In this document: piece by piece, positions 38,662-64,000 of the stretch
Layout: every line of letters begins with the position of its first letter
Numbering within the stretch: position 1 is the first letter of the stretch
Virus record (IMG/VR): IMGVR_UViG_3300023109_001684
Direction: 5' to 3' (one strand)
DNA: 64,000 nucleotides
From: a virus
Program-made: the position numbers and the translations under genes
Notes under the pieces: model-generated
What the model saw: only the letters and a program-made list of their open reading frames with translations
Databases searched by the model: none
What the model was told of the DNA's origin: nothing

Positions 38662-39574
38662 AATTTTAGATTATGACATTATATATTTGTCGTACGATGA
38701 ACCAAATGCTGATAAAAACTATGCAGATTTATTAACTAAAGTGCCATGGGCAAAACGTGTACACGGTGTAGAAGGAAGTGACGCTGCACACAAAGCATGT
38801 GCAAAATTATCAGAGACAGATAGATTTATTACAGTTGATGGTGACAATATTGTACATCCTAAGTTTTTTACACAAGTGCTAGATCTCTCTAAGCATCCTA
38901 ATTTAGAAAATAGTGTAATAAGTTGGTGTGGCAAAAATATTATTAATGGGTTAATGTACGGCAACGGTGGGTTAAAGTGCTGGCCAAAGAATTATGTGTT
39001 GAATATGAAAACACATGAAAATGCTGATCCAAATAATTTGCAAGCACAGGTAGACTTTTGTTGGGATCTAGAATACATACAGCAAAATAGTTGGTATAGT
39101 GATGTGTATAATAACGCAACACCACATCAAGCATGGCGAGCTGGATTTAGAGAGGGTGTTAAAATGGCACTTGACCAAGGTATAAAACCTACTAAAGATG
39201 ATTTTTTACGAGGGCATTGGAAAAACTTACATCGACTGTGGATATGGCTTATGGTTGGTGCAGATGTTGACAACGGTAAATGGGCAATCTATGGCGCCCG
39301 TGAAGGCCTGTACAAAACAATGTGTACTGATTGGGATTTTGTAAATGTAAGAGATTTTGAATATCTTAATCGCATGTGGAAAGAAATTGAACCTAAAGTA
39401 TCAATGGACGGACTAGAAGACTCCATTGAAGAATATGGTATTAAACTTATTAACGAACTTGAAATTCCTATTGCTGAAGAATGTCTTAATGCACAACAAA
39501 GTAAGTTCTTTAAAACAGTGTATCAAAATCCAAGCCGAAGTTCACAACAACAGTATATAATTGACCCAGAATGA
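38648..39574 (+). CDS. Putative glycosyltransferase (GT2-like, phage type)
   Basis: DIIYLSYDEPNAD...HGVEG..AHKACA..RFITVDGDN (DxD), YGNGGLK, AWRAGFREGVK; paralog of the C-terminal domain of 48116..50344. Confidence 0.65.
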   Translation: MSQIKILDYDIIYLSYDEPNADKNYADLLTKVPWAKRVHGVEGSDAAHKACAKLSETDRFITVDGDNIVHPKFFTQVLDLSKHPNLENSVISWCGKNIINGLMYGNGGLKCWPKNYVLNMKTHENADPNNLQAQVDFCWDLEYIQQNSWYSDVYNNATPHQAWRAGFREGVKMALDQGIKPTKDDFLRGHWKNLHRLWIWLMVGADVDNGKWAIYGAREGLYKTMCTDWDFVNVRDFEYLNRMWKEIEPKVSMDGLEDSIEEYGIKLINELEIPIAEECLNAQQSKFFKTVYQNPSRSSQQQYIIDPE

Positions 39575-40983: not shown

Positions 40984-42322
40984 ACGAGTAGATGCAGTAA
41001 AAGAAAGACTAAACAAGATAGGTAAAGGGTTTTGCACACAAAAATGGTTGCACGAAACACTTTATCTTCATACAGGCGATAATCACAGTTGTTATCATCC
41101 ACGACCTCAACATATACCTTTACAAGAAATACAAGATAATCCAAGTGCTTTACATAATACAAAATGGAAAAAGCAGCAACGTAAGACTATGCTAGAAGGT
41201 GGTCGTCCTGATGAATGTTATTACTGCTGGAATATTGAAGATCTACCTGGCGAGCATTTAAGTGATCGGCATTTTCATAGTGCTAGTTCTTATGCTGAGC
41301 CTGTGATTGAAACACTTGCAACTATGCCTTGGGATAAAGATATAAATCCTCGCTATTTGGAAGTTAGTTTTGGTAACGGGTGTAACTATCGTTGTGGCTA
41401 TTGCTGTCCACAAGCAAGTACATTATGGATGGACGAAATTAAAAAACACGGCAACTACGATTTAACCTACAATCAATACGGTATAGACTTTTTAGAAAAC
41501 GGAACATACTACGGTCCTAAAGACGACAATCCATATATCGAAGCATTTTGGAAATGGTGGCCTAGTTTACGCAATGATCTACACACACTACGTATTACTG
41601 GCGGAGAACCTTTAATGAACCCGGGATCTATGCAGTTTTTAGATCTATTAGAAAAAGAGCCTGCTCCAAATTTAAGAATTAGTCTCAATAGTAATCTAGG
41701 AGTTTCAACAAACAAGATAGACAAATTTTATGATAGAGTAGAATCTTTACTAGAAAATAAAAAAATTAAAAAGTTTAGCTTGTTTACAAGTATAGATACA
41801 TGGGGACCGCAAGCAGAATACATGCGTACTGGAATGAATCTAGTACACTGGGAACGTAATCTAAAAGAAGCATTGCGCAGGGGATTTCAAGTAAGTCTAA
41901 TGTGTACATTTAATGTTTTGTGTGTTACAAACTTCAAAAGTCTGTTACATAAAGTAATTGAGTGGAGAGAAGAGTTTGGACACCATGCTATTGGTTTTGA
42001 TACACCGTATTTAAAAGAGCCGCCGCATTGGATGATTAATATTTTACCAGAATCATTCTTATTATACATGGACGAAACACTTAGTTTTATTGATACAAAT
42101 ATGGATAAATTTAATCCGGATGAGTATGAAAAGTTCAAGCGTGTTAGAAACTACATGAAAGAAAATCCTGTTGATCCTCTTAAAATACAACAAGGTCGCA
42201 GAGACTTTTATAGTTTCTTTACAGAAAATGATAAACGTGTTGGACTAAATTTGTTAGAAGTATTTCCTGAATATACAGATTTCTTTAATTATTGTAAAGA
42301 GGTGCATGATAATTATGGCTAA
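40970..42322 (+). CDS. Radical SAM protein with N-terminal twitch/SPASM-like domain
   Basis: CNYRCGYC, ITGGEP; N-terminal FC..SCYH..CYYC; close paralog of upstream gene. Confidence 0.9.
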   Translation: MSRDKRVDAVKERLNKIGKGFCTQKWLHETLYLHTGDNHSCYHPRPQHIPLQEIQDNPSALHNTKWKKQQRKTMLEGGRPDECYYCWNIEDLPGEHLSDRHFHSASSYAEPVIETLATMPWDKDINPRYLEVSFGNGCNYRCGYCCPQASTLWMDEIKKHGNYDLTYNQYGIDFLENGTYYGPKDDNPYIEAFWKWWPSLRNDLHTLRITGGEPLMNPGSMQFLDLLEKEPAPNLRISLNSNLGVSTNKIDKFYDRVESLLENKKIKKFSLFTSIDTWGPQAEYMRTGMNLVHWERNLKEALRRGFQVSLMCTFNVLCVTNFKSLLHKVIEWREEFGHHAIGFDTPYLKEPPHWMINILPESFLLYMDETLSFIDTNMDKFNPDEYEKFKRVRNYMKENPVDPLKIQQGRRDFYSFFTENDKRVGLNLLEVFPEYTDFFNYCKEVHDNYG

Positions 42323-43514
42323 CGGGTGCGTTAATGCTTATATGAATTTAAGTATACACCCTACTGGAGGTGTACGACCTTGTTGTATGAGTGATAAATT
42401 CTTAACAACTGATACAGGCGAAACTTCATTAGACAAAGCAAGCATTAAAGATTTTTGGTATAGTAAAGATCGTAAAGATTTTGCAGACGCACTAGACAGC
42501 GGCGAAAGGATATCAGATTGCACAGCATGTTGGCAGGAAGAAGATGCTGGCAAAGAAAGCAAGCGCATAAGAGACAACAGAGAATATAAAGATAGAACAT
42601 TTGAGTTTGAAAGTTTGCCAGTTGTGCTAGATCTAAGCATGGGCAACTTATGTAACCTAAAGTGTCGCATTTGTTCGCCAAGACATAGTACTCCGTGGCT
42701 ACGTGAGGAAGCAGAAATACACAGTCCTAAGGACATAAAAGGTTACATGAAACAACCTAAATGGTTAATTGCTAAAGAAAGTTTTGAACAAACTAACGAC
42801 TTTGTTTGGGAAGATATAAAGGAGTTACTAGAACATGCAGAACGTTTTGATTTTGCTGGCGGAGAGCCTTTTTACATTCCTGCACATTGGAAAATGATAG
42901 AACACAGTGTTACACAAGGCTTTAGTAAGAATCAATATTTACATTATAACACAAATGGTACCATTTATCCGACCAAATATATAGATTTATTGGACAAATT
43001 TAAAACAGTTGATATACAAATAAGTTCAGATGGTATAGGTAAAAAGTTTGATTATTTACGACACGGAAGTCCATTTGAATTGTGTGAAGAAAATATAGAT
43101 AAATTTTTAGTGGCTAAAGATAATGCAAAGACAACATGGTATATTGGCGCATGTTTAAGTGTAAGTGCATTTAATGTATTTGATTTTTTTGAAACGTATG
43201 AACATTATGCAGCCAAAGGACTACGCATGTATGTAAACACAGTACATGATCATCATGGAGTAAGAATTATTCCTACAGAATTAAAACAAAAGTTAATAAA
43301 AAGATTAGAAGCAACAGAAAGCAAATATGATGTACATGACTGGACTAGGCAGCGTGATATGATTTGTAATCTATTGCGTAATACAGAATACAGTGAACAT
43401 GACTGGAACAATTTTTGGAAAGAAATACGGTTAAGAGATAAAGTCCGTAATGAAAGTTTCCAAGAAACATTTCCAGAATATTACAATTTAGCAAAGGAGT
43501 ACATCAATGTTTAG
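42315..43514 (+). CDS. Radical SAM protein with N-terminal twitch/SPASM-like domain
   Basis: CNLKCRIC, AGGEP; N-terminal C..PCC..CTAC. Start moved from 42306 to ATG 42315, which has better spacing to GAGGTG. Confidence 0.88.
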   Translation: MANGCVNAYMNLSIHPTGGVRPCCMSDKFLTTDTGETSLDKASIKDFWYSKDRKDFADALDSGERISDCTACWQEEDAGKESKRIRDNREYKDRTFEFESLPVVLDLSMGNLCNLKCRICSPRHSTPWLREEAEIHSPKDIKGYMKQPKWLIAKESFEQTNDFVWEDIKELLEHAERFDFAGGEPFYIPAHWKMIEHSVTQGFSKNQYLHYNTNGTIYPTKYIDLLDKFKTVDIQISSDGIGKKFDYLRHGSPFELCEENIDKFLVAKDNAKTTWYIGACLSVSAFNVFDFFETYEHYAAKGLRMYVNTVHDHHGVRIIPTELKQKLIKRLEATESKYDVHDWTRQRDMICNLLRNTEYSEHDWNNFWKEIRLRDKVRNESFQETFPEYYNLAKEYINV

Positions 43515-44742
43515 AGGTGAAAAGTTTCAAGTTCATTGGGAGCCTACTGATAGATGTAACAGTATGTGTCCAATGTGTCCACGATACACAAAAGACGGAT
43601 TTGAAGTAGAAACACTTTCAAATACTGAATGGACTTTAGACCAATTTAAAGCAGCATGGCCTGTAGAGTTTATTCAACGTAATTTAAAGAAAATTTTAGC
43701 ATGTGGTAATTTTGGTGATCCGTGTGCATGTAGACAATTTGTTGATATTTACGAATATGTAAGAGAACTAAATCCCGGAGTAGGGTTAGCGTGTAATACT
43801 AACGGAAGTCTAAGAACACCTGATTGGTGGGCACGTTTAGGCGCAGTAATGACAGAAAAACAAAATCCTGGCAATTACTGCACATTTAGTATTGACGGTT
43901 TAGAAGATACAAATCATCTATATAGACGTAAAACAAACTTTAAAAAGATAATCGAAAATGCTAAAGCGTTTATCGATGCTGGCGGAGTAGCACATTGGGA
44001 CTATATTGTATTTGAATACAACGAACATCAAGTTGAAGAAGCACGTAATCTAGCTATTGAAATGGGATTTAAAAACTTTAATATTAAGAGAACTACTAGA
44101 TGGCAAAGATACGACAATGACCAAGGAGCATATAAAGTATATGAAAAAGGCAAATACTTATATGATCTAAAACAGCCATCAGAAGTTGCATTTAAGCATA
44201 ACTTTGAAGATGCTACACTTTTTAAAAATCAAGAAAATCAAAGTATTACACTAGAAGATTTTAAAAATATGAAAGGCAGAGATAATGGAGATAATAGATA
44301 TGCAAACGGTGAATGGCATACTATTAAATTAAATGATTTGTCAATAGCATGCAGAAGTTGTGCAGGCGCAAGACCGCATCATCCTAACAACGAAATTTAT
44401 ATAGCAGCAGACGGTTTTGTATCTCCATGTTGTTTTTTAGGAAGTGAACCGTTTCATAATCCTAAACAAAGGTCAAGAGACGATAACTATTTAAAAATTG
44501 TTGATATTGATGGCGGACAACGTGCATTTAATATGCACGACCATAATTTGTTTGATATACTTGATAAAGACTTATTCCGTAAACTTATACCCGACACATG
44601 GGATAATGAAAGCGGCAATACAAGTATGCGTCCTGCTAAATGCGGGCAGTGCTGTGGTGTAGAATGGAATGGTCTTGACTTTGGCGAACTAGGCGACAAA
44701 CAAAATAGTTACTTAAATGGCGGCGGCGATGGAACTAAGTAA
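43507..44742 (+). CDS. Radical SAM protein with C-terminal SPASM/twitch-like domain
   Basis: CNSMCPMC, GNFGDP, SIDGLEDTNHLYRR; C-terminal C..YIAADGFVSPCC..CGQC; AAGGAG RBS. Confidence 0.9.
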   Translation: MFRGEKFQVHWEPTDRCNSMCPMCPRYTKDGFEVETLSNTEWTLDQFKAAWPVEFIQRNLKKILACGNFGDPCACRQFVDIYEYVRELNPGVGLACNTNGSLRTPDWWARLGAVMTEKQNPGNYCTFSIDGLEDTNHLYRRKTNFKKIIENAKAFIDAGGVAHWDYIVFEYNEHQVEEARNLAIEMGFKNFNIKRTTRWQRYDNDQGAYKVYEKGKYLYDLKQPSEVAFKHNFEDATLFKNQENQSITLEDFKNMKGRDNGDNRYANGEWHTIKLNDLSIACRSCAGARPHHPNNEIYIAADGFVSPCCFLGSEPFHNPKQRSRDDNYLKIVDIDGGQRAFNMHDHNLFDILDKDLFRKLIPDTWDNESGNTSMRPAKCGQCCGVEWNGLDFGELGDKQNSYLNGGGDGTK

Positions 44743-45922
44743 TTATTGTGTCTTACCTTTTAATAGTGTTAGTATAAGCGCAACTGGCGAAATACGACAG
44801 TGTTGTAATGCTGGCTATACTTCTAGCAATACATACGTAGACGCATTAGATGTCAACGGCATAATAAACAATCCTTTTATACAAGATATCCGTGAGCACT
44901 TTCAAGAAAATAAAAAACATTCTCAATGCGACAGATGCTGGAAAATGGAGGACTTGGGATCTAGAAGTTTTCGACATGTTGCAAATAATGATAAAGAACA
45001 CGGAGTTAAACGTGGAATAAAAAGTACTAAAACAGTAATGGATTTTGAGGATCTTGAGTACATAGATATAACACTAGGTAACAAGTGTAATCTTGCATGC
45101 CGTATGTGCAACTGGTCCAGTAGTAGTTTATTAGCAAAACAACTAAAAGAATTAGGTAAACACAACGGTCCTATAGACTTAGAATTAAATGAAGAATCAA
45201 AACAAAAAGTTTTAGAGTTATTTCGCAAAAGTAAAAATCTAAACAGTATCTATATGTTAGGCGGCGAGCCATTAATAAATCCATTTCATGATGAAATATT
45301 AGATCTATTAATAGACTCTGGACAAGCAAAGAACATCGGTATACACTATAATACTAATTTGCAAGTAAATAAAATTGAAGACTACATAGACAAATGGAAA
45401 CACTTTAGAACAATACATATACAGGCAAGTATTGACGGGTGTGATGAAGTTTATAATTATATACGTTGGCCTGGTAATTGGAACAAAGTATTTAAAAATT
45501 TACTAACTCTAGTTAATTTTGGCGACGACGAAAAAATTAAAGTTAGTATTAGTACAACAATACAAAACACCAATGCACTAAATATTCCTAAACTTATCGA
45601 AAGGTGTCAATCTTTAGAAGGAAAAGCAGTTCCATTTTTCTTTATACCAGTTGTTGGCACATGTACATTAGATATCACTCCTAAACATATTATTCAGCAA
45701 GCAATTGATATACTAGAAGCAATGCCAGCCCGTAATCAAATACCAATGCAAGATCTATTAGCAAACTATTATGATGCCCTAACAAAGCCAATTGATATTA
45801 GGAAAGTTGGTGAATACTTCCAAGAACAAAAAATGTTTGACGAGAAGCGTGGACAAAATTTATTTGAAACAGTCCCATACTTTATAGAACTTGCAGATGA
45901 ATACAATATAGAAAGATGGTAA
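44717..45922 (+). CDS. Radical SAM protein with N-terminal twitch/SPASM-like domain
   Basis: CNLACRMC, LGGEP, YIRWP; N-terminal YC..QCC..CDRC. True start may be 44729. Confidence 0.88.
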   Translation: MAAAMELSNYCVLPFNSVSISATGEIRQCCNAGYTSSNTYVDALDVNGIINNPFIQDIREHFQENKKHSQCDRCWKMEDLGSRSFRHVANNDKEHGVKRGIKSTKTVMDFEDLEYIDITLGNKCNLACRMCNWSSSSLLAKQLKELGKHNGPIDLELNEESKQKVLELFRKSKNLNSIYMLGGEPLINPFHDEILDLLIDSGQAKNIGIHYNTNLQVNKIEDYIDKWKHFRTIHIQASIDGCDEVYNYIRWPGNWNKVFKNLLTLVNFGDDEKIKVSISTTIQNTNALNIPKLIERCQSLEGKAVPFFFIPVVGTCTLDITPKHIIQQAIDILEAMPARNQIPMQDLLANYYDALTKPIDIRKVGEYFQEQKMFDEKRGQNLFETVPYFIELADEYNIERW

Positions 45923-50344: not shown

Positions 50345-51011
50345 AGATATCTTTGGCAGGATGTTAGTTTTAACTGATAATCCTCTCTTTAATAATTTAA
50401 GAAATGCTGTTGATAATTTTGATGCAGATCTCACTGATGCATTAAGTTGGGGACAGTTAAAAAGCAAGAGATGGCTTGTTGACGAGCTAGAAAAATCTAA
50501 CTTAGATTTAGGTACTGTATTTTTATGTGCTGGCTGGTATGCAACTCTTGCTGCAATGATATTTGATAGTAATGTTAATGTATTTAAGATTAGAAGTTTT
50601 GACATTGATGATGCTTGTGCAAGTATAGCTGAAACAGTTAATAGACATCATACTAAAGATAATTGGAGATTTAAAGCAAGTACTGCAAATATACACGATA
50701 TAAACTATAGAGGTTTTACATATAAATCTAAAAGATATGACGGCAGCGAAGTTGAATTATCTGATGCACCGGATACTATTATCAATACTAGCTGCGAACA
50801 TATTGAAAACTTTTCTAATTGGTACAACAATATTCCTACTGGAAAAATTGTTATATTGCAGAACAATAATTATACTGAAATCGACGATCATATAAATTGC
50901 GTAAATAATTTAGAAGAGTTTGCCAATCAAACTTCTATGAGCCAAGTACTATATGAAGGCTCGCTAAAATTATCTAAATATACTCGATTTATGAGGATAG
51001 GTATTAAATGA
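50325..51011 (+). CDS. Putative class I SAM-dependent methyltransferase
   Basis: VFLCAGWYA glycine-loop variant, IRSFDID acidic strand, IINTSCEH; AAGGAG RBS. Confidence 0.65.
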   Translation: MQFQDDKDIFGRMLVLTDNPLFNNLRNAVDNFDADLTDALSWGQLKSKRWLVDELEKSNLDLGTVFLCAGWYATLAAMIFDSNVNVFKIRSFDIDDACASIAETVNRHHTKDNWRFKASTANIHDINYRGFTYKSKRYDGSEVELSDAPDTIINTSCEHIENFSNWYNNIPTGKIVILQNNNYTEIDDHINCVNNLEEFANQTSMSQVLYEGSLKLSKYTRFMRIGIK

Positions 51012-52156
51012 AAAAAGACAATTATTGTAATTATGTTGACAAAGGAATACGAATAAAACTCTTTGACCATCAAGGAGAGCTTTATGCTATCATCAAGCCC
51101 TGTTGCCATATTACATCAAATTACATGCCTCAAGAATATAAAGCTCCTGTTAAAATAAACACAGTTGATGATTTATTAAAAAACAAATCATTAAAATATT
51201 TTAGGAAATACTTTAAACGCAACAACGATTTGCCCCCTGCGTGTATTGCTTGTACTAATTATGAAAGTAAAGGCTTACGAAGTCCTAGAAATAAAATTAA
51301 TGAAACTGATTACTCAGAATATGATATAAACAAACTTGATGTAGTACTAGGAAATAGTTGTAATCTTGCATGTCCTTTCTGTAGCAGTTATGCAAGTAGT
51401 CTTATTGATAAGTTGTCATCAAAGTTAACACCAAACGAAAGGCCTCAATCTTGGATTCCGTTAAAGGATGTTACTCACAAAGGGTCTTATAGAACTGCGG
51501 ATTTAATAGCAGAAGTATTAGACAAATATAAAGTACATACTTTAAAACTTATTGGCGGAGAGCCGTTTTTAAAGGAAAACTGGGATAAAATTTCAGAAGT
51601 TATAGATACTAATAAATGTAAGGATTTACATTTAGAAGTAACAACTAACGGAACTATACTAAACGATGAAATCTTTAATCGTTTAAGTAAAACGAAACAT
51701 GCTCATCTTAGATTGAGTGTTGATAGTATAGGTCCTAATTATGAATTTATACGCTGGCCGCATAAATGGAATAAAATGGACAAAAACTTAGACTATTTAC
51801 GAAATAATAATCAAAGCAATATTCATATCAGTGTTTCAAATCTTGTAAATATCTTTAACTTTGAATACCTTCCAGAAATAGAAGAATACTTTCTAGATGT
51901 AAAAAACGTAGTAGGTTATAGTACAGAAATTAAACCAATAACTCATTTAATGAATTATCAAAATTTGCCCGAACATATTATAGAATCAATAAAATCTCGT
52001 ATTAAATCTAAAAATTTAAAACAAGCACTTGTAAAGGGAAATAATAATTATTCTAAAGAAATTATTAAAAAAGAATTTGAAGTATTGTTAGCACAACGTA
52101 AAATGTCTGCAGAAGATGTAATCGGCCCAATGACTAGAGAGTGGCTAGAATTATGA
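51008..52156 (+). CDS. Radical SAM protein with N-terminal twitch/SPASM-like domain
   Basis: CNLACPFC, IGGEP, FIRWP; N-terminal YC..PCC..CIAC. Confidence 0.88.
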   Translation: MKKDNYCNYVDKGIRIKLFDHQGELYAIIKPCCHITSNYMPQEYKAPVKINTVDDLLKNKSLKYFRKYFKRNNDLPPACIACTNYESKGLRSPRNKINETDYSEYDINKLDVVLGNSCNLACPFCSSYASSLIDKLSSKLTPNERPQSWIPLKDVTHKGSYRTADLIAEVLDKYKVHTLKLIGGEPFLKENWDKISEVIDTNKCKDLHLEVTTNGTILNDEIFNRLSKTKHAHLRLSVDSIGPNYEFIRWPHKWNKMDKNLDYLRNNNQSNIHISVSNLVNIFNFEYLPEIEEYFLDVKNVVGYSTEIKPITHLMNYQNLPEHIIESIKSRIKSKNLKQALVKGNNNYSKEIIKKEFEVLLAQRKMSAEDVIGPMTREWLEL

Positions 52157-54013: not shown

Positions 54014-54821
54014 AAGACACACAGTTAGTATTATTTTAAACGACAACAACTTTGTTACTTGTTGGACAACCCAACTTGAAAAGTGTTTAGACAATAGTTT
54101 GTATGCATACGAAGTTACATTAAATGGATTTAATCAAGGTAGTGAATTTAAAAATTTAAGAAAAACACTTCAAGATCTTAATAAATTTAAGCAAGGAACT
54201 GTTCCTGCATCGTTTACTAATAAGTTTGAATTTACAATGCAAGAATTAAGTGATCTTCATTTCATATACGAAAGTATTGCAACAGATGAAACATACCTAG
54301 AAGTAAAAAAGTTAGTTGACCAGTTTAACGATAATATACATCATGCTGAAGAAGTTGCGATTAAGAATCAATCAGCATCACCTAGATTAAGATTTAGAAT
54401 AGTAGATCCTATTACTGGAGTTCCAAATGTGGAAAAACTTCCACTCGAGTATGACGACTATAAGTTGTACGATCCTTATATTAGACCTTATACTGTTTAT
54501 TTAAATTACAATGCATTGGGTGAAGATTTCTTAAAAACATATAAAAGTGGCAGAACTCCTGATACAGCAGTAGTTTTAGAAAAGTTTAGCCCTAGTTTCT
54601 TTTTTACACTGCAAGCAGATTATATAGATAAGCAGCATACAGAAATTGAAAACTGTAAAAAGTGGCTAAACGATAGTAACATAGACATTAATAAATCTAA
54701 AAATGCAATAGGTCATATTCCTCTAGGGACAGTGCATAAAGTGTATGCTGAAGATTTTTTAAAAGTTATTTTACAAAGAAAATTAACAAAGGTGGAACTA
54801 ATAGATGTTGAAAGAAATTAA
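53988..54821 (+). CDS. Hypothetical protein, His/Glu-motif family (copy 2)
   Basis: LSDLHFIYE, FNDNIHHAE, VYLNYNALGE, KNAIGHIP. Start set to ATG 53988. Confidence 0.65.
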   Translation: MKILNLTFERHTVSIILNDNNFVTCWTTQLEKCLDNSLYAYEVTLNGFNQGSEFKNLRKTLQDLNKFKQGTVPASFTNKFEFTMQELSDLHFIYESIATDETYLEVKKLVDQFNDNIHHAEEVAIKNQSASPRLRFRIVDPITGVPNVEKLPLEYDDYKLYDPYIRPYTVYLNYNALGEDFLKTYKSGRTPDTAVVLEKFSPSFFFTLQADYIDKQHTEIENCKKWLNDSNIDINKSKNAIGHIPLGTVHKVYAEDFLKVILQRKLTKVELIDVERN

Positions 54822-55455
54822 AACACTTGATCTGTGTGGTGTTGAATTAAACATATATAAAGGACCTAATGCTATTAGTGTCAGCGGCGGAGCAGACAGT
54901 GCAGTATTATTGTACTTCCTATTAAAACATTCAACTGACAGATTGCATATTTTTACACTTGCAGATGGAACAAAAAACATTACAGGCGCAAAAGCAGCAA
55001 TGAATGTAGTGTACGAATGTGCAAGATTAACAGGCAATTACAACTTTGAACATCATATTGACTACTCGCCTGATTATATTGATACATATGTAGAACGCTT
55101 ACCGTTTGAATATTTAGATAAAAACGAATTTAATGTTCTATATGCAGGTATTACCAATGTTCCGCCTGTAGAAGAACGTAATGAGTTCTACGGCAACTTT
55201 TACGAAGATACGAGAAACCCTGAAGAAGTTAGAGAAGTTTTTAGATATAACTTCAGTTATATACCTTGGACTAATTACGATAAGAAAAAGATTGCAGAAA
55301 TTTATAGAGAATACGAATTACTAGATAATCTTTTTCCAGTTACAAGAAGTTGTGAATGGAACGAATTTGTTAGTAGCAAAGATCCTGGAATGGACCACTG
55401 CGGTGAGTGCTGGTGGTGCAACGAAAGACAATGGGCATTTGGGAGATTAAAATGA
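54805..55455 (+). CDS. QueC-like PP-loop ATP pyrophosphatase (7-cyano-7-deazaguanine synthase-like)
   Basis: SVSGGADS PP-loop; C-terminal TRSC...HCGECWWCNER zinc motif. Confidence 0.75.
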   Translation: MLKEIKTLDLCGVELNIYKGPNAISVSGGADSAVLLYFLLKHSTDRLHIFTLADGTKNITGAKAAMNVVYECARLTGNYNFEHHIDYSPDYIDTYVERLPFEYLDKNEFNVLYAGITNVPPVEERNEFYGNFYEDTRNPEEVREVFRYNFSYIPWTNYDKKKIAEIYREYELLDNLFPVTRSCEWNEFVSSKDPGMDHCGECWWCNERQWAFGRLK

Positions 55456-56552: not shown

Positions 56553-57448
56553 AATTTTGTATAATATTTACTAATAATGACAATGAGGAGTATACTTTGA
56601 AATATAAAGTATACAATACACCTATTGCTGTTAAATGGTACGAGTCGTTGTGTAAGCAAGTCCTAAACAAAGATAATAAAGTAAAAGAATCCGACAGGCT
56701 CTATAATTTTCCAGACGATGAGTGGAACGAAGAAAAAATAGTTTCAGAGTTAAATAAGTGCATCGAGACTATAAATTCTAAAACTAAAGTTATAATGCAT
56801 ACTGCATTTGTCGGAATGCCTCAAGAACAGCTAAATCATTTGCATCATTACTTCGAAGAGTTAAGAGGTGCTTCTAAAAATTCGGCAGACTATTACTTAA
56901 ATGCATCACCTAACGAACGTCTTGCTCTTGAAAGATATAATGTTATTATACATCGAGCAGAAAACTTTTATTTAGAAAACACAATTAATACATCAAAAGT
57001 ATCTCCTAGAATTGTAGTAACTTTTAAGGGAAGGAAAAAAGAATTGCTAGCAGATAACGATTATGAATACTTTACTTTACATAGAAAATTTGGAGAAGTA
57101 TATATCAATTATTGCGAAGTAGGAAAACCGTTGTATGATGTATATAAAGATAATGATGATATTGTTGGGGAAGATAATATACGTCCGTTAAAATGGTACA
57201 GTCCTGATTTTACAGCTTATTTTTTTAATCGACCTATAGAAACAGTTGAAAACTTTTTACAAGGCATGGATCTATGGTGGGATCAAAATAATAATTATTT
57301 AACTGCATTAGGGTTTACAAAGGGAGATCCGAAAAATGCAATTGGAAATATTCCGGTTGCCATGTTAGAAAGTTCTCTAACTTCTAAAGAAATAGTACTA
57401 GCAATATCTGAATACAATAATATAGATAGGGTTGAAATTTATGACTGA
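56549..57448 (+). CDS. Hypothetical protein, His/Glu-motif family (copy 3)
   Basis: LNHLHHYFEE, YNVIIHRAE, VYINYCEVGK, KNAIGNIP. Confidence 0.65.
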   Translation: MKFCIIFTNNDNEEYTLKYKVYNTPIAVKWYESLCKQVLNKDNKVKESDRLYNFPDDEWNEEKIVSELNKCIETINSKTKVIMHTAFVGMPQEQLNHLHHYFEELRGASKNSADYYLNASPNERLALERYNVIIHRAENFYLENTINTSKVSPRIVVTFKGRKKELLADNDYEYFTLHRKFGEVYINYCEVGKPLYDVYKDNDDIVGEDNIRPLKWYSPDFTAYFFNRPIETVENFLQGMDLWWDQNNNYLTALGFTKGDPKNAIGNIPVAMLESSLTSKEIVLAISEYNNIDRVEIYD

Positions 57449-58190
57449 ACAAGAAATTAAAGAAATGTTTTTCTTTAACGACAATTGGAAAAACATAGGA
57501 GTTAAATTATCAGGAGGCGCAGATAGTGCAATTATGTATTATGCTATTTGTGATCATTATAAAGATAGAGACGATGTAAACATATATCCAATGTCTCTTG
57601 ATACTAAATTTAAACCTTGGTATAGTAAAGGTGCAAAACGTATTATAGCTAAAGTTACAGAACTAACAGGAAAAAGTCCACAAGAACATATTGTTAAGTA
57701 TTCTAAAAAACACACTAATCGTCAAACAGCAGATTGGTATATAAAAGAGCAAAAAAATCTAATAATAGAAAGTCATATAAAGTTTAATTTTGATGCAGTG
57801 TACAATGGATTAACTAGTAATCCTGTTGAAGAAGATTTTTTAGAATCTATAAGACAATATTATCCAGACGATAAATTATTTGAGTTGACTAAGAAGCATA
57901 TCGTAAAAAGAGACTTTGATAGAGACTTAGGAAAAAACAAATATGGACAAAATGTAATTGATACAGGACATTTTATCAATATTAGACCGTTTGTACACAA
58001 AGATAAAAAGCTTACTGCTGAAGTTTATAAATATTACAATAGACTAGACGACTTATATCCTTTAAGCTATAGTTGCGAAACTAGATGGCAAGAACATAAA
58101 TTAGAGCAAAAACATTCGCACGAATGGAAACATTGTGGTTATTGTTTCTTTTGTGCAGAACGTATATACGCATTTGGAAAATTAGAATGA
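57441..58190 (+). CDS. QueC-like PP-loop ATP pyrophosphatase (second copy)
   Basis: KLSGGADS; SYSCE...HCGYCFFCAER..AFGKL. Start set to ATG 57441. Confidence 0.75.
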   Translation: MTEQEIKEMFFFNDNWKNIGVKLSGGADSAIMYYAICDHYKDRDDVNIYPMSLDTKFKPWYSKGAKRIIAKVTELTGKSPQEHIVKYSKKHTNRQTADWYIKEQKNLIIESHIKFNFDAVYNGLTSNPVEEDFLESIRQYYPDDKLFELTKKHIVKRDFDRDLGKNKYGQNVIDTGHFINIRPFVHKDKKLTAEVYKYYNRLDDLYPLSYSCETRWQEHKLEQKHSHEWKHCGYCFFCAERIYAFGKLE

Positions 58191-58756
58191 ATTTTGAAAA
58201 ATTAAATCTTCCGAACTATGATATAAAAAGCATATTAGATAATATGCTTGAAGATAAAGTTGTGCATTGGACAGATTTAAATCAAATTTGTATCAATACT
58301 GTAAAAGGCGAGGAAGATAATTTTTTATATGGAGCAGGAAGTTTGTTTTATGATTGGTCCAATGGTGAAGAAGTTTATGACGAAAAAGGTCATATGCGCC
58401 ATATACCTGCTAAAAGAGAAACACCGTTAAAAGAAGCAGACTTTACAAATTTGTGTAACGTATTTAAAAATACTGTGTTTGAAGATCTTTACAATGTATT
58501 AAAAGAAAATTATAATGTAGGCAGAGTTAGACTAATGAAAAGCCCACCTAAGACTTGTTTAAGTTGGCACGTGGATGATACTAAACGCATACACTATCCT
58601 ATTAAAACACAAGAAGGTTGTTTTATGATCATTGAAGAAGAAATAAAACATCTTCCGCAGCATACTTGGTGGCTTACTAATACTTTAGTAAAGCATACTG
58701 CAATGAATGCTAGTCTCGAAGATCGCGTACACCTAGTAGCCACATTACTCAAATAA
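58187..58756 (+). CDS. 2OG-Fe(II) oxygenase, aspartyl/asparaginyl beta-hydroxylase-like
   Basis: RVRLM..P.TCLSWHVD..RIHYPI.T...KHTAMN.S.EDRVHLV. Start set to ATG 58187 (ATGA overlap). Confidence 0.75.
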   Translation: MNFEKLNLPNYDIKSILDNMLEDKVVHWTDLNQICINTVKGEEDNFLYGAGSLFYDWSNGEEVYDEKGHMRHIPAKRETPLKEADFTNLCNVFKNTVFEDLYNVLKENYNVGRVRLMKSPPKTCLSWHVDDTKRIHYPIKTQEGCFMIIEEEIKHLPQHTWWLTNTLVKHTAMNASLEDRVHLVATLLK

Positions 58757-58788: not shown

Positions 58789-59229
58789 ATGACATACGAT
58801 GAATTTAAACATAACTTTCTAACCTGGGCAATAGAATATATAGAGCCTGTGCAAGATAACGGATATCCAGTATGTCCGTTTGCTAAAACAGCCAGGTTGA
58901 AAAATGAAATACAATTTATCGATGCAACTCAAGACGTATTTAATGCTTGTGCAAAGTTTGACAACAAACAGTATAAACTAGGAGTAGCTTGGTTAAATGA
59001 TAATTTATTAAATGTTGATCAAGTAATAAAAGAATTAACAGCAAAAAATGACAATCTTCTGTACTTTAAAAGTACTACTAATAGCGGTCATTTTGTTAAA
59101 AACTTTACAAACTGTATTTTTATACAAGACAAAGGCGATATTAACAAAAAAAGAGCATACTTGCAGACTACAGATTATTATCAAAATTGGCCTGAGCACT
59201 ATTTGAAAGAGATAACCGAAAATGCCTAA
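58789..59229 (+). CDS. Hypothetical protein with CPFA motif
   Basis: 146 aa; PVCPFAK N-terminal motif, YYQNW C-terminal motif. Confidence 0.6.
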   Translation: MTYDEFKHNFLTWAIEYIEPVQDNGYPVCPFAKTARLKNEIQFIDATQDVFNACAKFDNKQYKLGVAWLNDNLLNVDQVIKELTAKNDNLLYFKSTTNSGHFVKNFTNCIFIQDKGDINKKRAYLQTTDYYQNWPEHYLKEITENA

Positions 59230-59851
59230 TGTAGAACAAATGTTTAGTATTCCAATTTACAAGAAAAATTTAGGAGACTTAAATCTTCAAAGTTTTCGAC
59301 AACGAGTATTAAAACTTATGGATGTAGAAGACTACGGCGATCATATAAGCGTAGTAGGTATGAAAGACGGTAATACAATTAATACATATGGAATTGAACG
59401 CCATATGCAAACTTGGGAAGAGTCTGATCTACTTGTAAAAGAAGTTAATACAGCCTTAGCCGAGTACTGGAAAGAACTAAACTATCATCCTGACCTTCAG
59501 CCGTACATACAAGAAATGTGGGCAACATTAAGTACACGGGGAGGATTTGTTCCTAGTCATTTTCATGGTCCGACACCTATTACAGCCGTGTTTTATCTAG
59601 ATAAAACAGATAACGCAGGCGATCTAACATTACAACATCCGTTAGAAGCACTACTAGGTTCGCAACCTGTAAACTTTCCGTTTGATGAGTTTGCACAAAC
59701 TATGAATGTGCAGCAAAACGATCTAATGATGTTTCCGGGATATATTAGACACTTTACAGAAAAAAATAAAACTGATAGTATAAGAATTAGTATAGGGATG
59801 AATATTGGTTCTAAAGGAACTTATGTATCGTCGCAATGGAGTCAAGTATGA
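59222..59851 (+). CDS. Putative 2OG-Fe(II) oxygenase (TIGR02466-like)
   Basis: MW..SHFH..AVFYL..G.L..FPGYIRH...RISIGMN pattern. Confidence 0.78.
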   Translation: MPNVEQMFSIPIYKKNLGDLNLQSFRQRVLKLMDVEDYGDHISVVGMKDGNTINTYGIERHMQTWEESDLLVKEVNTALAEYWKELNYHPDLQPYIQEMWATLSTRGGFVPSHFHGPTPITAVFYLDKTDNAGDLTLQHPLEALLGSQPVNFPFDEFAQTMNVQQNDLMMFPGYIRHFTEKNKTDSIRISIGMNIGSKGTYVSSQWSQV

Positions 59852-60885
59852 TTTGGACAGAATGGGGGAAATTAAAAGAAGTAGTAGTTGGAAAAGTTTA
59901 CGATCCTGACGAAGTAGAGTCTGACTTTCTTAAAAAAGTATTAGAAGAAACAGAAGAAGATTTTCAAGTATTAAATAAAATCTTCAAAGATGCCGGTGTC
60001 AAAGTACGTAGACCAGATAATGTTTCTTTGAATGAAATTAAAACTAATCAATGGGCAACTAAGTATCCATTGCCTGCAATATGTCCTCGAGACTTCCATA
60101 TAGTATACGGAAATAACATATTGTCAACGATAGGCGGCGATCCAAATCGATACCTTGAAAGTTTATTTTTCTACAATATTATGAACGAAAAGGCTAATGA
60201 AGGAAGAAACTTTATTAGTATGCCTAAACCGCTACTTCCGAATCATTATGCAAACTATGCCGATCATGATAATATGCCATTATATCATGCTGCAAATATT
60301 ATAAAGTGCGGCAACACATTAATCCATTCTAGGCCTCATGATACTCAAGAATATGCAGATCGGCCTATTAACCAAAAAGGTCGAGGTACTAACGCAGGAT
60401 TTAATTGGGTTAAGAAAAACATTGGTTACGATGTTAACTGGGCTGAAGTTCCTGCTGCTGGACATGTAGACGGAAAGATAGCTTTGTTAAAACCTGGATT
60501 ATTAATGATTCACGATGAAAGTCTTGTACCTAAAGAGATGCAAGATTGGGATAGAATAGTAGTTGACAAACACGAATTGCCCCAACATGTAAAAAATAGA
60601 ATTAGAAATGACTTTTACAACGAAGTTATAATGAAAGATATGCCGCACTGGGTAGGATTTGAATACTTACCTATGGAAACAATCTTTGATGTTAATGTAG
60701 TAAGTATTGACGAGAATACTGTAATAACAAACGGATATAACAAAGAAATCTTTAATAAATGTAAAAAATATGGTATTGAGTGCATACCTTTTGATTTCCG
60801 CCATAGATTTTTCTGGGACTGCGGAATACATTGTATAACATTAGATCTTGCTAGAGACGATAAGATGGAAAACTTTTTGTCATGA
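59848..60885 (+). CDS. Pentein-fold amidinotransferase-like protein (glycine/inosamine-phosphate amidinotransferase family)
   Basis: EWGKLKEVVVG, CPRD, PKP, HVDG, DVNVVSID, GIHCITLDLAR. Start set to ATG 59848 (ATGA overlap). Confidence 0.85.
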   Translation: MIWTEWGKLKEVVVGKVYDPDEVESDFLKKVLEETEEDFQVLNKIFKDAGVKVRRPDNVSLNEIKTNQWATKYPLPAICPRDFHIVYGNNILSTIGGDPNRYLESLFFYNIMNEKANEGRNFISMPKPLLPNHYANYADHDNMPLYHAANIIKCGNTLIHSRPHDTQEYADRPINQKGRGTNAGFNWVKKNIGYDVNWAEVPAAGHVDGKIALLKPGLLMIHDESLVPKEMQDWDRIVVDKHELPQHVKNRIRNDFYNEVIMKDMPHWVGFEYLPMETIFDVNVVSIDENTVITNGYNKEIFNKCKKYGIECIPFDFRHRFFWDCGIHCITLDLARDDKMENFLS

Positions 60886-62057
60886 ACGAATTAGTAGTTA
60901 TAGTAAATCCTGCAAGAGACCATTATGATGTAGTTAGAGAAGTCTTTAACAATTATACATACAAGATATTAATACTTTGGTCGTCTGAAGAGGACAAAAA
61001 TACAATACATAACAAGTACAGAAAGGATGATACGAGTTTTCACTACGAAGAAGTTTATACTAAAGAAGTAATAGATCGATATGCGCAAACGCATAAAATA
61101 ATTGCCTGTATTCCCAGTGGAGATGATAGCGTTGATCTTGCATTAAAACTTCAAAATCGTTATGTACCCAAAAAATCAAATTCTCTAGAAACAATTGATA
61201 TAATCAAAGATAAAGAATTGTATTTAAATTTACTTAGAGAAAAAGGAATTGTTACTACAAGACAGTACAGTCTTAATAATATAGAAGAATATCCTGTAGT
61301 TGTAAAACCTAAAGAAAGTCGTGGCGGAAGCGAAAATGTATACTATGTGAATAGTCTATCTAGTTTACCATCCTTAAATTCTAACGATTATATAGCACAA
61401 GAATATGTTGATGGTCCGGAATATACAATAGATATTGCAACAGCATCCGGCGAACATCATTTATTACTTGCTACAGAGTATAGTAAAAAACATGGATCGT
61501 TATGGCAATATAAAGAATCGGTAATGAATTATACAGAGAATAGATATTTCATTGACGAATTGTACGAGTATGTATGTTTATGTTTAGATGCGTTAAACTG
61601 GAATTTCGGTGTTACTTGCGCACAAGTAATAGTAGATGAGAAACACAAAATACATCTAGTTGAAATAAATTTTAGAAAACACGGACACATAAGTGATCAC
61701 GGAGTTTATCTATCTTCAGGCATAAAACTATCTACACATGTTAGTAATTTATATTTAAATACTGATAAATTTAAAAACAGAATTTCTTACTACGATTATA
61801 ATCAGCCATATGAAAGATTCTGGGTTAATGTAGAAAGTTCTAAGTATATTGAAAGTATTAACTGGCCAATGTTAGAAGAGATTCCTAGCTTTATTGGAAA
61901 AATAGATCACAATATACTTTTTAATTTACCAAAAAAAGTTAATCCTTCGACTAGTATGTTAAGTAGTCTAGGTATGGTTTCTTTATCAAACTCTGATTTG
62001 GTACAATATGATAAAGATATAGAAGCATATAATAATTGGTGGAATACATATAAATGA
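60882..62057 (+). CDS. ATP-grasp domain protein
   Basis: DK, YPVVVKP..SRGGSENV, QEYVDGPEYTID and LVEINFR motifs. Confidence 0.82.
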   Translation: MNELVVIVNPARDHYDVVREVFNNYTYKILILWSSEEDKNTIHNKYRKDDTSFHYEEVYTKEVIDRYAQTHKIIACIPSGDDSVDLALKLQNRYVPKKSNSLETIDIIKDKELYLNLLREKGIVTTRQYSLNNIEEYPVVVKPKESRGGSENVYYVNSLSSLPSLNSNDYIAQEYVDGPEYTIDIATASGEHHLLLATEYSKKHGSLWQYKESVMNYTENRYFIDELYEYVCLCLDALNWNFGVTCAQVIVDEKHKIHLVEINFRKHGHISDHGVYLSSGIKLSTHVSNLYLNTDKFKNRISYYDYNQPYERFWVNVESSKYIESINWPMLEEIPSFIGKIDHNILFNLPKKVNPSTSMLSSLGMVSLSNSDLVQYDKDIEAYNNWWNTYK

Positions 62058-63076
62058 TATTTACTGAATGGGATAAGTTAACAGAAGTTGTAGTAGGTTC
62101 TACATATGATTTAGAATCGTTACAGCAATTTGACGATAACAAGTTTATAGATGGAATGGCTAAAATTTTAGAGGAAACAGAACAAGATTTTTCTAAACTC
62201 TCTGACATATTTAAAAGTTATAATGTTAAAGTACATAGGCCTAAACAACTGCCCTTATTAAAAGAAAACACTAGAACTTGGAATTCAAAGTATCCTTATC
62301 CTGCAATATGTCCTAGAGATTTTCATGTTGTGTACGGAAATACAATACTAGGTACTATCGGTGGAGACTGTAATAGATATACAGAAAGCGATTACTTCTT
62401 AGACATTATGCTTAAAAAATTCAAAGAAGGACGCAACTATATAAGTATGCCTAAGCCGCTACTACAAAGCGACTACAAGGAGTACGAACAACTAGAAGGC
62501 CAAATACTATGGCATGCAGCAAACATTATTAAGTGCGGCGACATGTTGTTACACACGCAGCCTTATGCACCGGAGCAGCACGGAAGAGGAACATATGCAG
62601 GATTAGACTGGATAAAACGTAATATAGGCTATGATGTTAAATGGGCAGAAATACCTAGAACAGGACATGCAGACGGAAAAATTGCACTAATCAAACCCGG
62701 ACTGCTATTCTGTTGGGATCCTAGTGCAATACCAGAAGAATTAAAAAGTTGGGACTATATTAAACTAGAACGCAAGCCGCTACCTGATTATTTTAATGAT
62801 ATTAAAATCCAGCACTTTTACAAAGATAAAGTCACAAGTTGGTTAGATCATTGGATCGGTTATGTAGACGAGACTGTGTTCGATATTAATGTAGTAAGCA
62901 TAGATGCTAATACTGTAATAACTAATGGTCATGATCCTGAAGTAGAACGTAAACTTAAAAAACACGGTGTTGATATGATACCTTTTGATTTTCGACATAA
63001 GTACTTTTGGGATAGCGGATTACATTGCGTAACACTAGATTTAAGTAGAGAAGGCGAACGACAGTCTTATGTATAA
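62054..63076 (+). CDS. Pentein-fold amidinotransferase-like protein (second copy)
   Basis: EWDKLTEVVVG, CPRD, PKP, HADG, DINVVSID, GLHCVTLDLSREGERQSY. Confidence 0.85.
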   Translation: MIFTEWDKLTEVVVGSTYDLESLQQFDDNKFIDGMAKILEETEQDFSKLSDIFKSYNVKVHRPKQLPLLKENTRTWNSKYPYPAICPRDFHVVYGNTILGTIGGDCNRYTESDYFLDIMLKKFKEGRNYISMPKPLLQSDYKEYEQLEGQILWHAANIIKCGDMLLHTQPYAPEQHGRGTYAGLDWIKRNIGYDVKWAEIPRTGHADGKIALIKPGLLFCWDPSAIPEELKSWDYIKLERKPLPDYFNDIKIQHFYKDKVTSWLDHWIGYVDETVFDINVVSIDANTVITNGHDPEVERKLKKHGVDMIPFDFRHKYFWDSGLHCVTLDLSREGERQSYV

Positions 63077-63788
63077 TATTGTAATAAACACACCAGAAGC
63101 ACTAGTAATAGATGATTTCTTACCTCAAGACATTTGGGATAAAATTTGGAATCAAGTACAAGTTGACAAATGGAGTCAATCAGGTGCAGATGATAAATTT
63201 TGGCATTACACTGACGGCGCAAACTATAAAAATAATAAGCGTTGGCTCACTGAAGGTCCTTTTAATGACAACAGTGATCTGTGGTTTAAACACTTTACAG
63301 AATTTCTTAATAAATGCCCCGAAGCAAAACCTTTTGCTAAAGACTATATAGAAATTGCGATGCGCTGCCATGCATATCCGGTCAACAGTAAAAACCCGTG
63401 GCACAACGATTTAGGATTTACAACTTACACTTATTATTTACACAGACACTGGCAAATAAATTGGGATAGCACACTCCTTATATGCCCCCTTGGAAGTGTA
63501 GACTATCAGCAAGTTCTTCCTTTAGAAGAAGGTACTGTGCATCACGACTGTTATACAAACACTAACAGTCCTATGGAAATGTTTCAGCAAGCTGACAAAT
63601 ATAAACCTATTATAGATTACGGTCTCGGAATGTTTGTTAGCCCTAAGCCAAACAGATTAATACTAATTAATAAAAGAGTTGTACACGGAATAACTAGAGT
63701 TGATTCTGATGCAGGCGAGAACATGCGTGTAACACTTACTGGGATGATAATGGAAAGTGATTGGAAAGAAACTAATGATTTATTTTAA
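63069..63788 (+). CDS. 2OG-Fe(II) oxygenase, prolyl-4-hydroxylase-like
   Basis: PWHND (HxD), YYLH..W..NW, PKPNRLI, VHGITRV, RVTLTG. Confidence 0.78.
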   Translation: MYNIVINTPEALVIDDFLPQDIWDKIWNQVQVDKWSQSGADDKFWHYTDGANYKNNKRWLTEGPFNDNSDLWFKHFTEFLNKCPEAKPFAKDYIEIAMRCHAYPVNSKNPWHNDLGFTTYTYYLHRHWQINWDSTLLICPLGSVDYQQVLPLEEGTVHHDCYTNTNSPMEMFQQADKYKPIIDYGLGMFVSPKPNRLILINKRVVHGITRVDSDAGENMRVTLTGMIMESDWKETNDLF

Positions 63789-64000
63789 GGAATTTCCAGA
63801 ATTAAATTGGACACCTGAATTAGGCCAACAATATCTTTTAGATAATTTACCTAATCCGTTTAATACAAACGATCCGCAAGTTGATGATATAATGAAAGCT
63901 GACAAGGGATGGTTTCATATTGGTCCAGGAGGCATACAAATGCATTATTGTGGCAGCAATGACCCTCGTTTTGAATGTTTTAAACCTATTACAGATAAGT
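63775..64000 (+). CDS. Hypothetical protein (3' truncated by window)
   Basis: Not in ORF track. ATG at 63775 overlaps the previous gene end and stays open to the window end: MIYFKEFPELNWTPELGQQY...FKPITDK. Confidence 0.6.
   Translation, partial: MIYFKEFPELNWTPELGQQYLLDNLPNPFNTNDPQVDDIMKADKGWFHIGPGGIQMHYCGSNDPRFECFKPITDK

Follow-up and report, generated by a model that had tools for sequence, protein, structure and literature searches.

Layout of the trio

We analyzed a 64,000-nucleotide stretch of viral DNA (IMG/VR virus record IMGVR_UViG_3300023109_001684), the whole of which is called the window here, and focused on a trio of genes near its end that encodes two amidinotransferase-like paralogues, AmT1 and AmT2, around an ATP-grasp protein. 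The trio is bracketed by genes for 2-oxoglutarate (2OG)-Fe(II) oxygenases. The five genes are listed below; the trio is taken from the open reading frame (ORF) table.

59222-59851, + strand: upstream 2OG-Fe(II) oxygenase, TIGR02466 type (PF13759 2OG-FeII_Oxy_5, E = 4.6e-13; phrog_81, E = 1e-28)
59848-60885, + strand: AmT1, 345 amino acids from the ATG at 59848 (open frame from 59836)
60882-62057, + strand: ATP-grasp protein, 391 amino acids
62054-63076, + strand: AmT2, 340 amino acids
63069-63788, + strand: downstream 2OG-Fe(II) oxygenase, 239 amino acids, partner of AmT2, with an 8-nucleotide overlap

ATGA start/stop overlaps were read directly from the letters at 59848, 60882, and 62054, and the downstream oxygenase gene starts 8 nucleotides before the AmT2 stop (ATGTATAA at 63069). 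The ATGA overlaps indicate that the trio is probably cotranslated. AmT1 and AmT2 are paralogues with 51% identity (E = 4e-134), and because their alignment begins at the Met encoded at 59848, this position is the likelier start of AmT1. The original prediction made for this DNA had described two amidinotransferase paralogues joined to an ATP-grasp gene by ATGA overlaps, starting at 59848 and bracketed by 2OG oxygenases. The ORFs, the overlaps, and the paralogue identity bear out this layout, the paralogue alignment favors the proposed start, and both oxygenases are present, the upstream one carrying PF13759 and the downstream one an HxD...H...R motif.

AmT1 and the ATP-grasp gene form an optional accessory pair

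Relatives are encoded in at least 574 IMG/VR stretches; the AmT alignment served to fetch 80 loci, and the proteins of the gene island around the trio were scored against the ORFs of the fetched loci with phmmer. The gene for the 239-residue oxygenase lay directly after an AmT gene in 31 of the 80 loci. Many of these oxygenase-paired loci (L022 to L033) held nothing else of the island, and one of them, L028, was close to the terminase gene of a PA5oct-like jumbo phage. The ATP-grasp gene was found in two of the AmT loci, namely, the window's near-identical contig and L021.

In a FastTree phylogeny, the AmT1-type proteins formed a clade of their own (support, 99; four rows), sister to a large AmT2 clade, nearly all members of which adjoin the oxygenase. 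All four members of the AmT1 clade adjoin an ATP-grasp gene. ATP-grasp orthologues at 52 to 100% identity all lay within two genes of an AmT; those at 52 to 79% identity were beside AmT1 in L021 and one gene away in L005 and L006, the first PP-loop gene of the island sitting between AmT1 and the ATP-grasp gene in L005. In L007 and L008, the ATP-grasp gene directly precedes AmT2, and there is no AmT1.

The closest syntenic relatives of the window, L018 and L019, share a syntenic island and 90 to 92% AmT2 identity. At about 9300 to 11000 in these loci, the PF13759 oxygenase gene is followed by AmT2, AmT1 and the ATP-grasp gene being absent, and blastn put this indel at gene boundaries. Because the oxygenase pairing, the AmT1 clade, and the L018/L019 indel separate the two pairs from each other, the trio resolves into two modules: AmT2 and the 239-residue oxygenase are a widespread core pair, and AmT1 and the ATP-grasp protein are a rare accessory pair inserted in front of it. 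The trio had been described as a cassette; these loci do not support a single symmetric unit, since AmT1 and the ATP-grasp gene are optional and AmT2 pairs with the oxygenase. On the co-conservation of the three genes, proposed earlier for a search of viral databases, the loci point both ways: the AmT1 clade is always adjacent to an ATP-grasp gene, but few of the AmT loci have that gene and neither L018 nor L019 does.

Features of the two amidinotransferase-like proteins

In a phmmer search of AmT2 against the PDB, StrB1 (1bwd) was the best match at E = 2.6e-20, and HsvA (5wpi), SxtG (6u1r), and AGAT followed down to 1e-10. A family profile was then built from 32 AmT relatives and run against the PDB sequences. 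Over positions 2 to 340, it matched 1bwd at 1.1e-72, 5wpi at 6e-65, 6u1r at 2e-63, and AGAT at 3e-57, the full-length matches across the solved amidinotransferases ranging from 1e-72 to 5e-55. Judged by these profile matches, AmT1 and AmT2 belong to the StrB1/HsvA/SxtG/AGAT amidinotransferase-like family, with a predicted pentein fold, and the family assignment of the original prediction holds. Both proteins fall in phrog_25854, annotated as "unknown function." The residues that correspond to the active site are as follows.

AmT1: Cys329, His206, and Asp208 kept; His147 at the triad Asp position
AmT2: Cys325, His205, Asp207, and Asp89 kept; His154 at the triad Asp position

AmT2 Cys325 (with His324, in a C-terminal G-x-H-C-x-T motif) is invariant in the 32 sequences, and His324-Cys325 aligns with the HC of StrB1, HsvA, SxtG, and AGAT. 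His205 and Asp207 (H-x-D) and Asp89 (P-R-D) are likewise invariant across the 32 family members. From the structures of AGAT and StrB1, we take the conserved Cys to be the nucleophile, the His to be the general base, and the two Asp residues to be the guanidinium-binding carboxylates. The third triad residue (Asp179 in StrB1 and Asp254 in AGAT; motif F-D-A-A) is replaced by His in both paralogues. All 26 closer clade members have this His, whereas Asp or Glu stands here in the six distant relatives and in all four solved enzymes; gp086 of the Campylobacter phage CP220 has the canonical Asp. Transferase activity cannot be assumed because of this replacement in both paralogues. The clade also has a specific acidic insert, G-Y-V-D-E-T-V-F-D, which precedes the N-V-x-S strand. 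The missing N-P-x-R segment, which holds the carboxylate binder Arg322 in AGAT, was considered as a sign of a different donor; this argument was withdrawn because HsvA and SxtG are also without the segment and HsvA still uses L-Arg (PMC6187163).

Predicted fold and rarity of the ATP-grasp protein

The ATP-grasp protein matched PF02655 (ATP-grasp_3) at 8.5e-11, with 42.6 bits against a cutoff of 23.2, and NF005543 at 1.8e-28, below the family cutoff. Because a phmmer search against the PDB sequences gave nothing at an E value of ≤0.01, a fold search was used. An AlphaFold2 model built from nine homologues had a predicted local distance difference test (pLDDT) score of 83.6. Ranks 1 to 3 of the Foldseek search with this model were 3vot and RizA (4wd3), with template modeling (TM) scores of 0.66 to 0.74; YwfE/BacD, PurK, and PylC came after these, and GAR synthetase/PurT and biotin-dependent carboxylases were also matched. 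In its modeled fold, the protein is closest to the L-amino-acid ligases (LALs). The ATP-grasp assignment made earlier holds on both counts, with PF02655 above its threshold and an LAL-like predicted fold. Lys142, Glu174, Glu180, Glu261, Asn263, and Arg265 are invariant in nine sequences and presumably form the standard nucleotide and Mg2+ site motifs. LAL C-terminal domain 2 (PF18603) was not detected in the phage protein by the Pfam search; distant relatives include double ATP-grasp fusions with an LAL_C2 domain.

The family is rare, with nine clusters among 5.8 billion proteins, and an exhaustive search gave 31 representatives at an E value of ≤1e-30. Neither a nucleotide search with the trio nor a tblastn search with the ATP-grasp protein found a match among 50,697 phage records. 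Graspetide-type ligases and RimK were not among the listed fold matches. With only adjacent genes considered, a small precursor-peptide gene would not fit at 54 to 64 kb, because the genes there overlap or lie ≤33 nucleotides apart. The two marks of graspetides and other ribosomally synthesized and posttranslationally modified peptides, an adjacent precursor and, among the fold matches listed, an MdnB/MdnC-like fold, were both missing for the ATP-grasp protein.

Source phage, tailoring island, and neighboring genes

Baseplate hub, wedge, and tail-fiber genes fill 1 to 36 kb of the window. In its baseplate wedge protein, the phage shares about 35% identity with the jumbo myoviruses SCTP-2, Atu_ph07, and fHe-Yen9-04, and copies of the ATP-grasp protein at 99% identity are present on IMG/VR viral contigs. 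The source is an uncultured marine jumbo phage, and the baseplate and fiber genes together with these near-identical viral copies agree with the phage origin that had been proposed. Directly 3' of the baseplate wedge gene, a single ORF of 5207 amino acids occupies 10377-26000 of the window.

The trio stands at the distal end of a large tailoring island, which occupies 36 to 64 kb and runs past the end of the window. The island lies between tail-fiber genes, with fiber genes at 26 to 32 kb on one side and an Mtd_N fiber downstream. Six radical S-adenosylmethionine (SAM) paralogues (39571-45922 and 51008-52156) pass the cutoff of NF033640, the N-terminal twitch-domain (N-twitch) radical SAM family, with 177 to 317 bits against 170, and three further island proteins carry a Pfam radical SAM domain. 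In the NF033640-type paralogues, a SPASM-like Cys-rich segment detected by Pfam precedes the radical SAM core rather than following it. The island also holds two QueC-like PP-loop genes, at 54805-55455 and 57432-58190, whose proteins match QueC in the C-terminal Cys-rich part only and with marginal scores. The other genes close to the trio are given below.

58124-58756, + strand: Asp/Asn beta-hydroxylase-like (AspH-like) 2OG oxygenase (PF05118, E = 9.6e-09)
58789-59229, + strand: phage-specific protein of 146 amino acids, a frequent AmT neighbor by locus counts
63757-64000, + strand: start of a conserved gene for 191 amino acids that runs off the window (ORFs in the contig L003)

L005, L007, and L021 likewise have the AspH-like gene upstream of the module. 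The 146-residue protein was found in 22 of 97 loci, which include distant AmT loci and Bdellovibrionia; its protein-atlas neighbors are "T4-like GC 824" and DUF6875-like, and phmmer against the PDB gave chance matches only. The 239-residue partner oxygenase has a weak Pfam match (PF13640, 0.035), and its protein-atlas neighbors carry PF13640. Its H112-x-D114, His206, and Arg220 are invariant in a 16-sequence alignment. Its model had a pLDDT of 70, and the best fold matches were PHD2, OGFOD1, and the P4H/EF-Tu complex at a TM score of about 0.5, with the small-molecule oxygenases PolD and OkaE scoring equally.

The contig L003, which is 99% identical to the window, extends the view beyond its end. 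A gene for a 278-residue protein resembling pyridoxal phosphate (PLP)-fold enzymes lies at 13451-14287, after the gene for the 191-residue protein. An S-x-x-K is invariant in this family, whose profile matches ACC synthase at 1.5e-4 and aminotransferases weakly; the top matches of the profile, to TAL effectors, were discarded because a short repeat-like segment gives rise to them. A phmmer search of the 278-residue protein against the PDB gave chance matches only, and no family library annotates the family. From its sequence, the protein may be a PLP fold-type-I relative, though a shortened one, and could provide an acceptor amine. The gene is co-conserved with AmT in phages and Bdellovibrionia. 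On the opposite strand of L003 beyond the window, there are another AspH-like gene, a gene with marginal ferritin-like Pfam matches, and the Mtd_N-type fiber gene. In addition, 16103-17592 (- strand) encodes two 248-residue membrane proteins of the fatty-acid-desaturase family, which have transmembrane helices and the His boxes HRHHH and HNxHH.

Occurrence in other phages and in Bdellovibrionia

A scan of 185,579 species genomes for the His-variant AmT returned only eight loci, seven of them in metagenome-assembled genomes of Bdellovibrionia/Pseudobdellovibrionaceae of 2.8 to 4.5 Mb. In the Bdellovibrionia loci (L099 to L104; for example, L100 at 10001-11047), the AmT gene stands among 5 to 14 ORFs that best match the radical SAM paralogues of the window. 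These loci also hold the PLP-like gene, and some hold the 146-residue, PP-loop, and AspH-like genes. The ATP-grasp family was not found in five Bdellovibrionia genomes with the AmT and radical SAM set, some of which may be incomplete. The island core without the ATP-grasp gene recurs in Bdellovibrionia.

Among phages, Campylobacter phages CP220 and CPt10 were described with five radical SAM genes and a putative glycine amidinotransferase in an interchangeable module (Timms et al., 2010, PMC2853527), and this arrangement was confirmed here. Cyanophage S-SCSM2R is annotated with an AmT and oxygenase pair (PMC12801897). Its AmT, ORF266 (L001, 11512-12405), is without the N-terminal P-R-D segment but keeps the His, Asp, and Cys, and a member of the same oxygenase family comes next. 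Nishimura et al. reported 12 radical SAM genes in a T4-like marine viral genome (PMC5332604). The original prediction had not recognized a described phage pathway here; phage amidinotransferases have been on record since 2010, but no function has been assigned to them. The His-variant clade, the two-module structure, the optional AmT1 and ATP-grasp pair, and the link to Bdellovibrionia are new.

Comparison with known systems

The cotranscribed hsv operon of Pseudomonas syringae and Erwinia amylovora (HsvA, HsvB, and HsvC) is, like the trio, a three-gene mix of amidinotransferase and ATP-grasp genes. The amidinotransferase HsvA and two ATP-grasp enzymes make amidinospermidine and then its Val- and Phe-amides, giving phevamine A; an amine is amidinated in an Arg-dependent step, and the amide bonds are formed thereafter by the ATP-grasp enzymes (PMC6187163). 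HsvA is the second-best solved match of the phage AmTs, with a profile E value of 6e-65. In contrast to hsv, which has one amidinotransferase and two ligases, the phage has two AmTs and one ligase, and its module lies inside a large radical SAM/oxygenase island. Unlike HsvA, the phage AmTs have His at the triad Asp and the clade-specific DETVFD insert.

In the Pht cluster, the Arg:Lys amidinotransferase AmtA makes a guanidino amino acid, which the two ATP-grasp peptide ligases PhtQ and PhtU build into a short peptide, phaseolotoxin (PMC8473136). Going by the title of a reference in that paper, the Pht cluster also has fatty-acid-desaturase-like and aminotransferase genes, as does the phage island. 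Unlike the island, the Pht cluster makes a bacterial toxin and includes genes for resistance and transport, none of which were seen here. The route from an amidinotransferase and ATP-grasp enzymes to guanidino amides, on which the original prediction had drawn, is thus documented in both hsv and Pht.

StrB1 (1bwd), the scyllo-inosamine-4-phosphate amidinotransferase of streptomycin biosynthesis, is the best solved match of the phage AmTs (1e-72). As with StrB1 and StrB2, two AmT paralogues occur in one cluster, and an aminotransferase-like gene is near the phage pair. Asp179 is retained in StrB1, unlike its counterpart in the phage AmTs. A streptidine-like double amidination was not adopted, as neither cyclitol nor sugar-phosphate genes were identified beside the phage AmT genes. 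CP220 and CPt10 resemble the phage in carrying radical SAM genes (about five) with an amidinotransferase (PMC2853527). CP220 gp086 is only 26% identical, has the canonical Asp, and has neither an ATP-grasp gene nor the 239-residue oxygenase as a partner. By analogy, the layout in the phage resembles that of bacterial operons for small guanidino-peptide virulence molecules.

Possible functions of the two modules

We tentatively favor, as a possible explanation by analogy with these operons, that the two modules make a low-molecular-weight guanidino/amide product, with AmT1 and the ATP-grasp protein as an optional extension. The substrate of AmT2 and its coupled 2OG oxygenase would be a guanidino or amine intermediate. 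A guanidino donor, which is most likely L-arginine by comparison with HsvA, StrB1, and AGAT, would give rise to a covalent Cys-amidine on AmT2, and AmT2 would hand the amidino group to a primary amine that is hydroxylated before or after the transfer. AmT1 would make a second guanidino unit, and the ATP-grasp protein would activate a carboxylate as an acyl phosphate and join it to an amine via an amide bond. The accessory pair would thereby add a guanidino-bearing unit to the island product, comparable to phevamine (amidinospermidine-Val-Phe) or phaseolotoxin (homoarginine tripeptide). The PLP-fold-like gene could install the acceptor amine, and the product may end up as a free metabolite or as a glycan, lipid, or fiber decoration. 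The donor, the order of the steps, and a low-molecular-weight rather than a protein substrate are what we infer. Guanidinylation with amide ligation, as originally predicted, is plausible in that the families and the analogues fit, but the His at the triad leaves the transferase step itself less secure.

This reading is favored by the full-length profile matches to the four solved amidinotransferases, the invariant Cys, His, and guanidinium-binding Asp residues, the LAL-like modeled fold and invariant motif residues of the ATP-grasp protein, the ATGA overlaps, the AmT neighborhood of all ATP-grasp orthologues at 52 to 100% identity, the co-conserved PLP-fold-like gene, the lack of room for a precursor-peptide gene at 54 to 64 kb, and the products of hsv and Pht. 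Several observations weigh against this product-forming role. The triad Asp that is replaced in both paralogues is required in AGAT, as established by mutagenesis. A Pfam search of AmT1 and AmT2 gave nothing at an E value of ≤10 except a chance match to DUF1823, so that the threshold of PF02274 was not reached, and an NCBIfam search gave no match. The AmT1 and ATP-grasp genes are missing from L018 and L019. No AmT was within reach of four distant ATP-grasp relatives, one of which was measured at 29% identity; their neighbors are instead membrane desaturase-like paralogues, with up to four copies in L009 and L015, and radical SAM genes, and a carrier-protein (PP-binding) gene, an AMP-binding gene, and a fiber gene were each seen near them in a single locus. 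Other points would favor a protein as the target: the partner oxygenase and the AspH-like genes resemble protein hydroxylases, the island is positioned between tail-fiber genes, and the virion proteome of S-SCSM2R contains the AmT (ORF266) and a 2OG oxygenase (ORF269) (PMC12801897).

It is on balance unlikely, though these last three points keep the idea alive, that the genes modify virion or fiber proteins. The AmTs would then guanidinylate Lys or Orn or deiminate Arg, the 2OG and AspH-like enzymes would hydroxylate, the ATP-grasp protein would add or cross-link an amino acid, and the radical SAM enzymes would act on the same fibers. Fiber genes on both sides of the island (26 to 32 kb and the downstream Mtd_N gene) are consistent with this, although such adjacency could reflect a hypervariable genome region. 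PF05118 is a family of protein Asp/Asn hydroxylases, and the closest fold matches of the 239-residue oxygenase are to protein prolyl hydroxylases (PHD2, OGFOD1, and P4H/EF-Tu); however, these matches are weak, as seen from the scores given above, and PolD and OkaE equal them. The radical SAM paralogues give weak, subthreshold matches to SPASM-type peptide maturases, and the same gene set is present in predatory Bdellovibrionia. The top folds of the ATP-grasp protein argue in the opposite direction, as they are free-amino-acid ligases, PurK, and PylC, with RimK and graspetide enzymes not among the listed matches. Moreover, no member of the amidinotransferase family is known to us to act on proteins.

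We consider it quite unlikely that the His-variant AmT, PLP-like, 146-residue, PP-loop, and N-twitch radical SAM proteins constitute one undescribed pathway of marine jumbo phages and Bdellovibrionia that builds a fiber decoration or an antimetabolite. Both carriers invade Gram-negative cells, and such a pathway could place a guanidinylated decoration on the host-recognition fibers of the invader or release a guanidino antimetabolite during attack. AmT1 and the ATP-grasp protein would extend the product by an amide-linked guanidino unit and so diversify closely related phages. The Campylobacter phages would hold only a looser analogue, with radical SAM genes and a canonical-Asp AmT.

The replacement of the triad Asp by His leaves room for hydrolysis or another altered chemistry. 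The AmT-like proteins might accordingly be guanidino hydrolases (deiminase-like or amidinohydrolase-like) or binders, with the ATP-grasp protein working with desaturases on a lipid- or carrier-linked substrate, but we regard this as decidedly unlikely. The pentein fold supports hydrolases as well as transferases. The His is fixed across the clade, in contrast to the Asp or Glu of the more distant relatives and of CP220 gp086, and ORF266 of S-SCSM2R was retained even without the N-terminal PRD segment. The distant ATP-grasp relatives co-occur with FA_desaturase paralogues, and in one case each with PP-binding and AMP-binding genes, rather than with an AmT; the desaturase-like proteins have transmembrane helices and His boxes. 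However, the invariant Cys, His, and both guanidinium-binding Asp residues argue that covalent catalysis has been kept. Every member of the AmT1 clade adjoins the ATP-grasp gene, and L018 and L019 keep the desaturase genes without the latter.

Least supported and very improbable, because the family searches of the island ORFs found no DNA transglycosylase, DNA-directed transferase, hydroxymethylase, or kinase family, is a nucleic acid hypermodification in which the island builds a guanidino or amidino base adduct that protects the phage DNA and the AmTs and ATP-grasp protein decorate a base-linked amine or carboxylate; the two QueC-like PP-loop genes, the weak similarity of the radical SAM proteins to QueE, MoaA, and viperin, and the AmT homologues in Campylobacter phages, which are reported to carry modified G, are in its favor, but the QueC matches are marginal (E = 4e-5, partial; NCBIfam QueC far below its cutoff) and the same gene set lies in Bdellovibrionia chromosomes.

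Implications

Amidinotransferases and radical SAM-rich modules have been noted in phages since 2010 without an assigned function. The present locus offers a practical way in, as AmT1 and the ATP-grasp gene are exactly what sets close relatives apart; with this natural presence/absence pair, comparative metabolomics or virion mass spectrometry could reveal what the accessory pair adds. The Asp-to-His variant of the triad is of enzymological interest. If the enzymes act like those of phevamine or phaseolotoxin biosynthesis, the phage would make a guanidino amide, for which there is no described precedent in phages; an action on the fibers would instead amount to a novel kind of virion protein modification. 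That predatory Bdellovibrionia share the core gene set suggests that it serves in the attack on Gram-negative cells.

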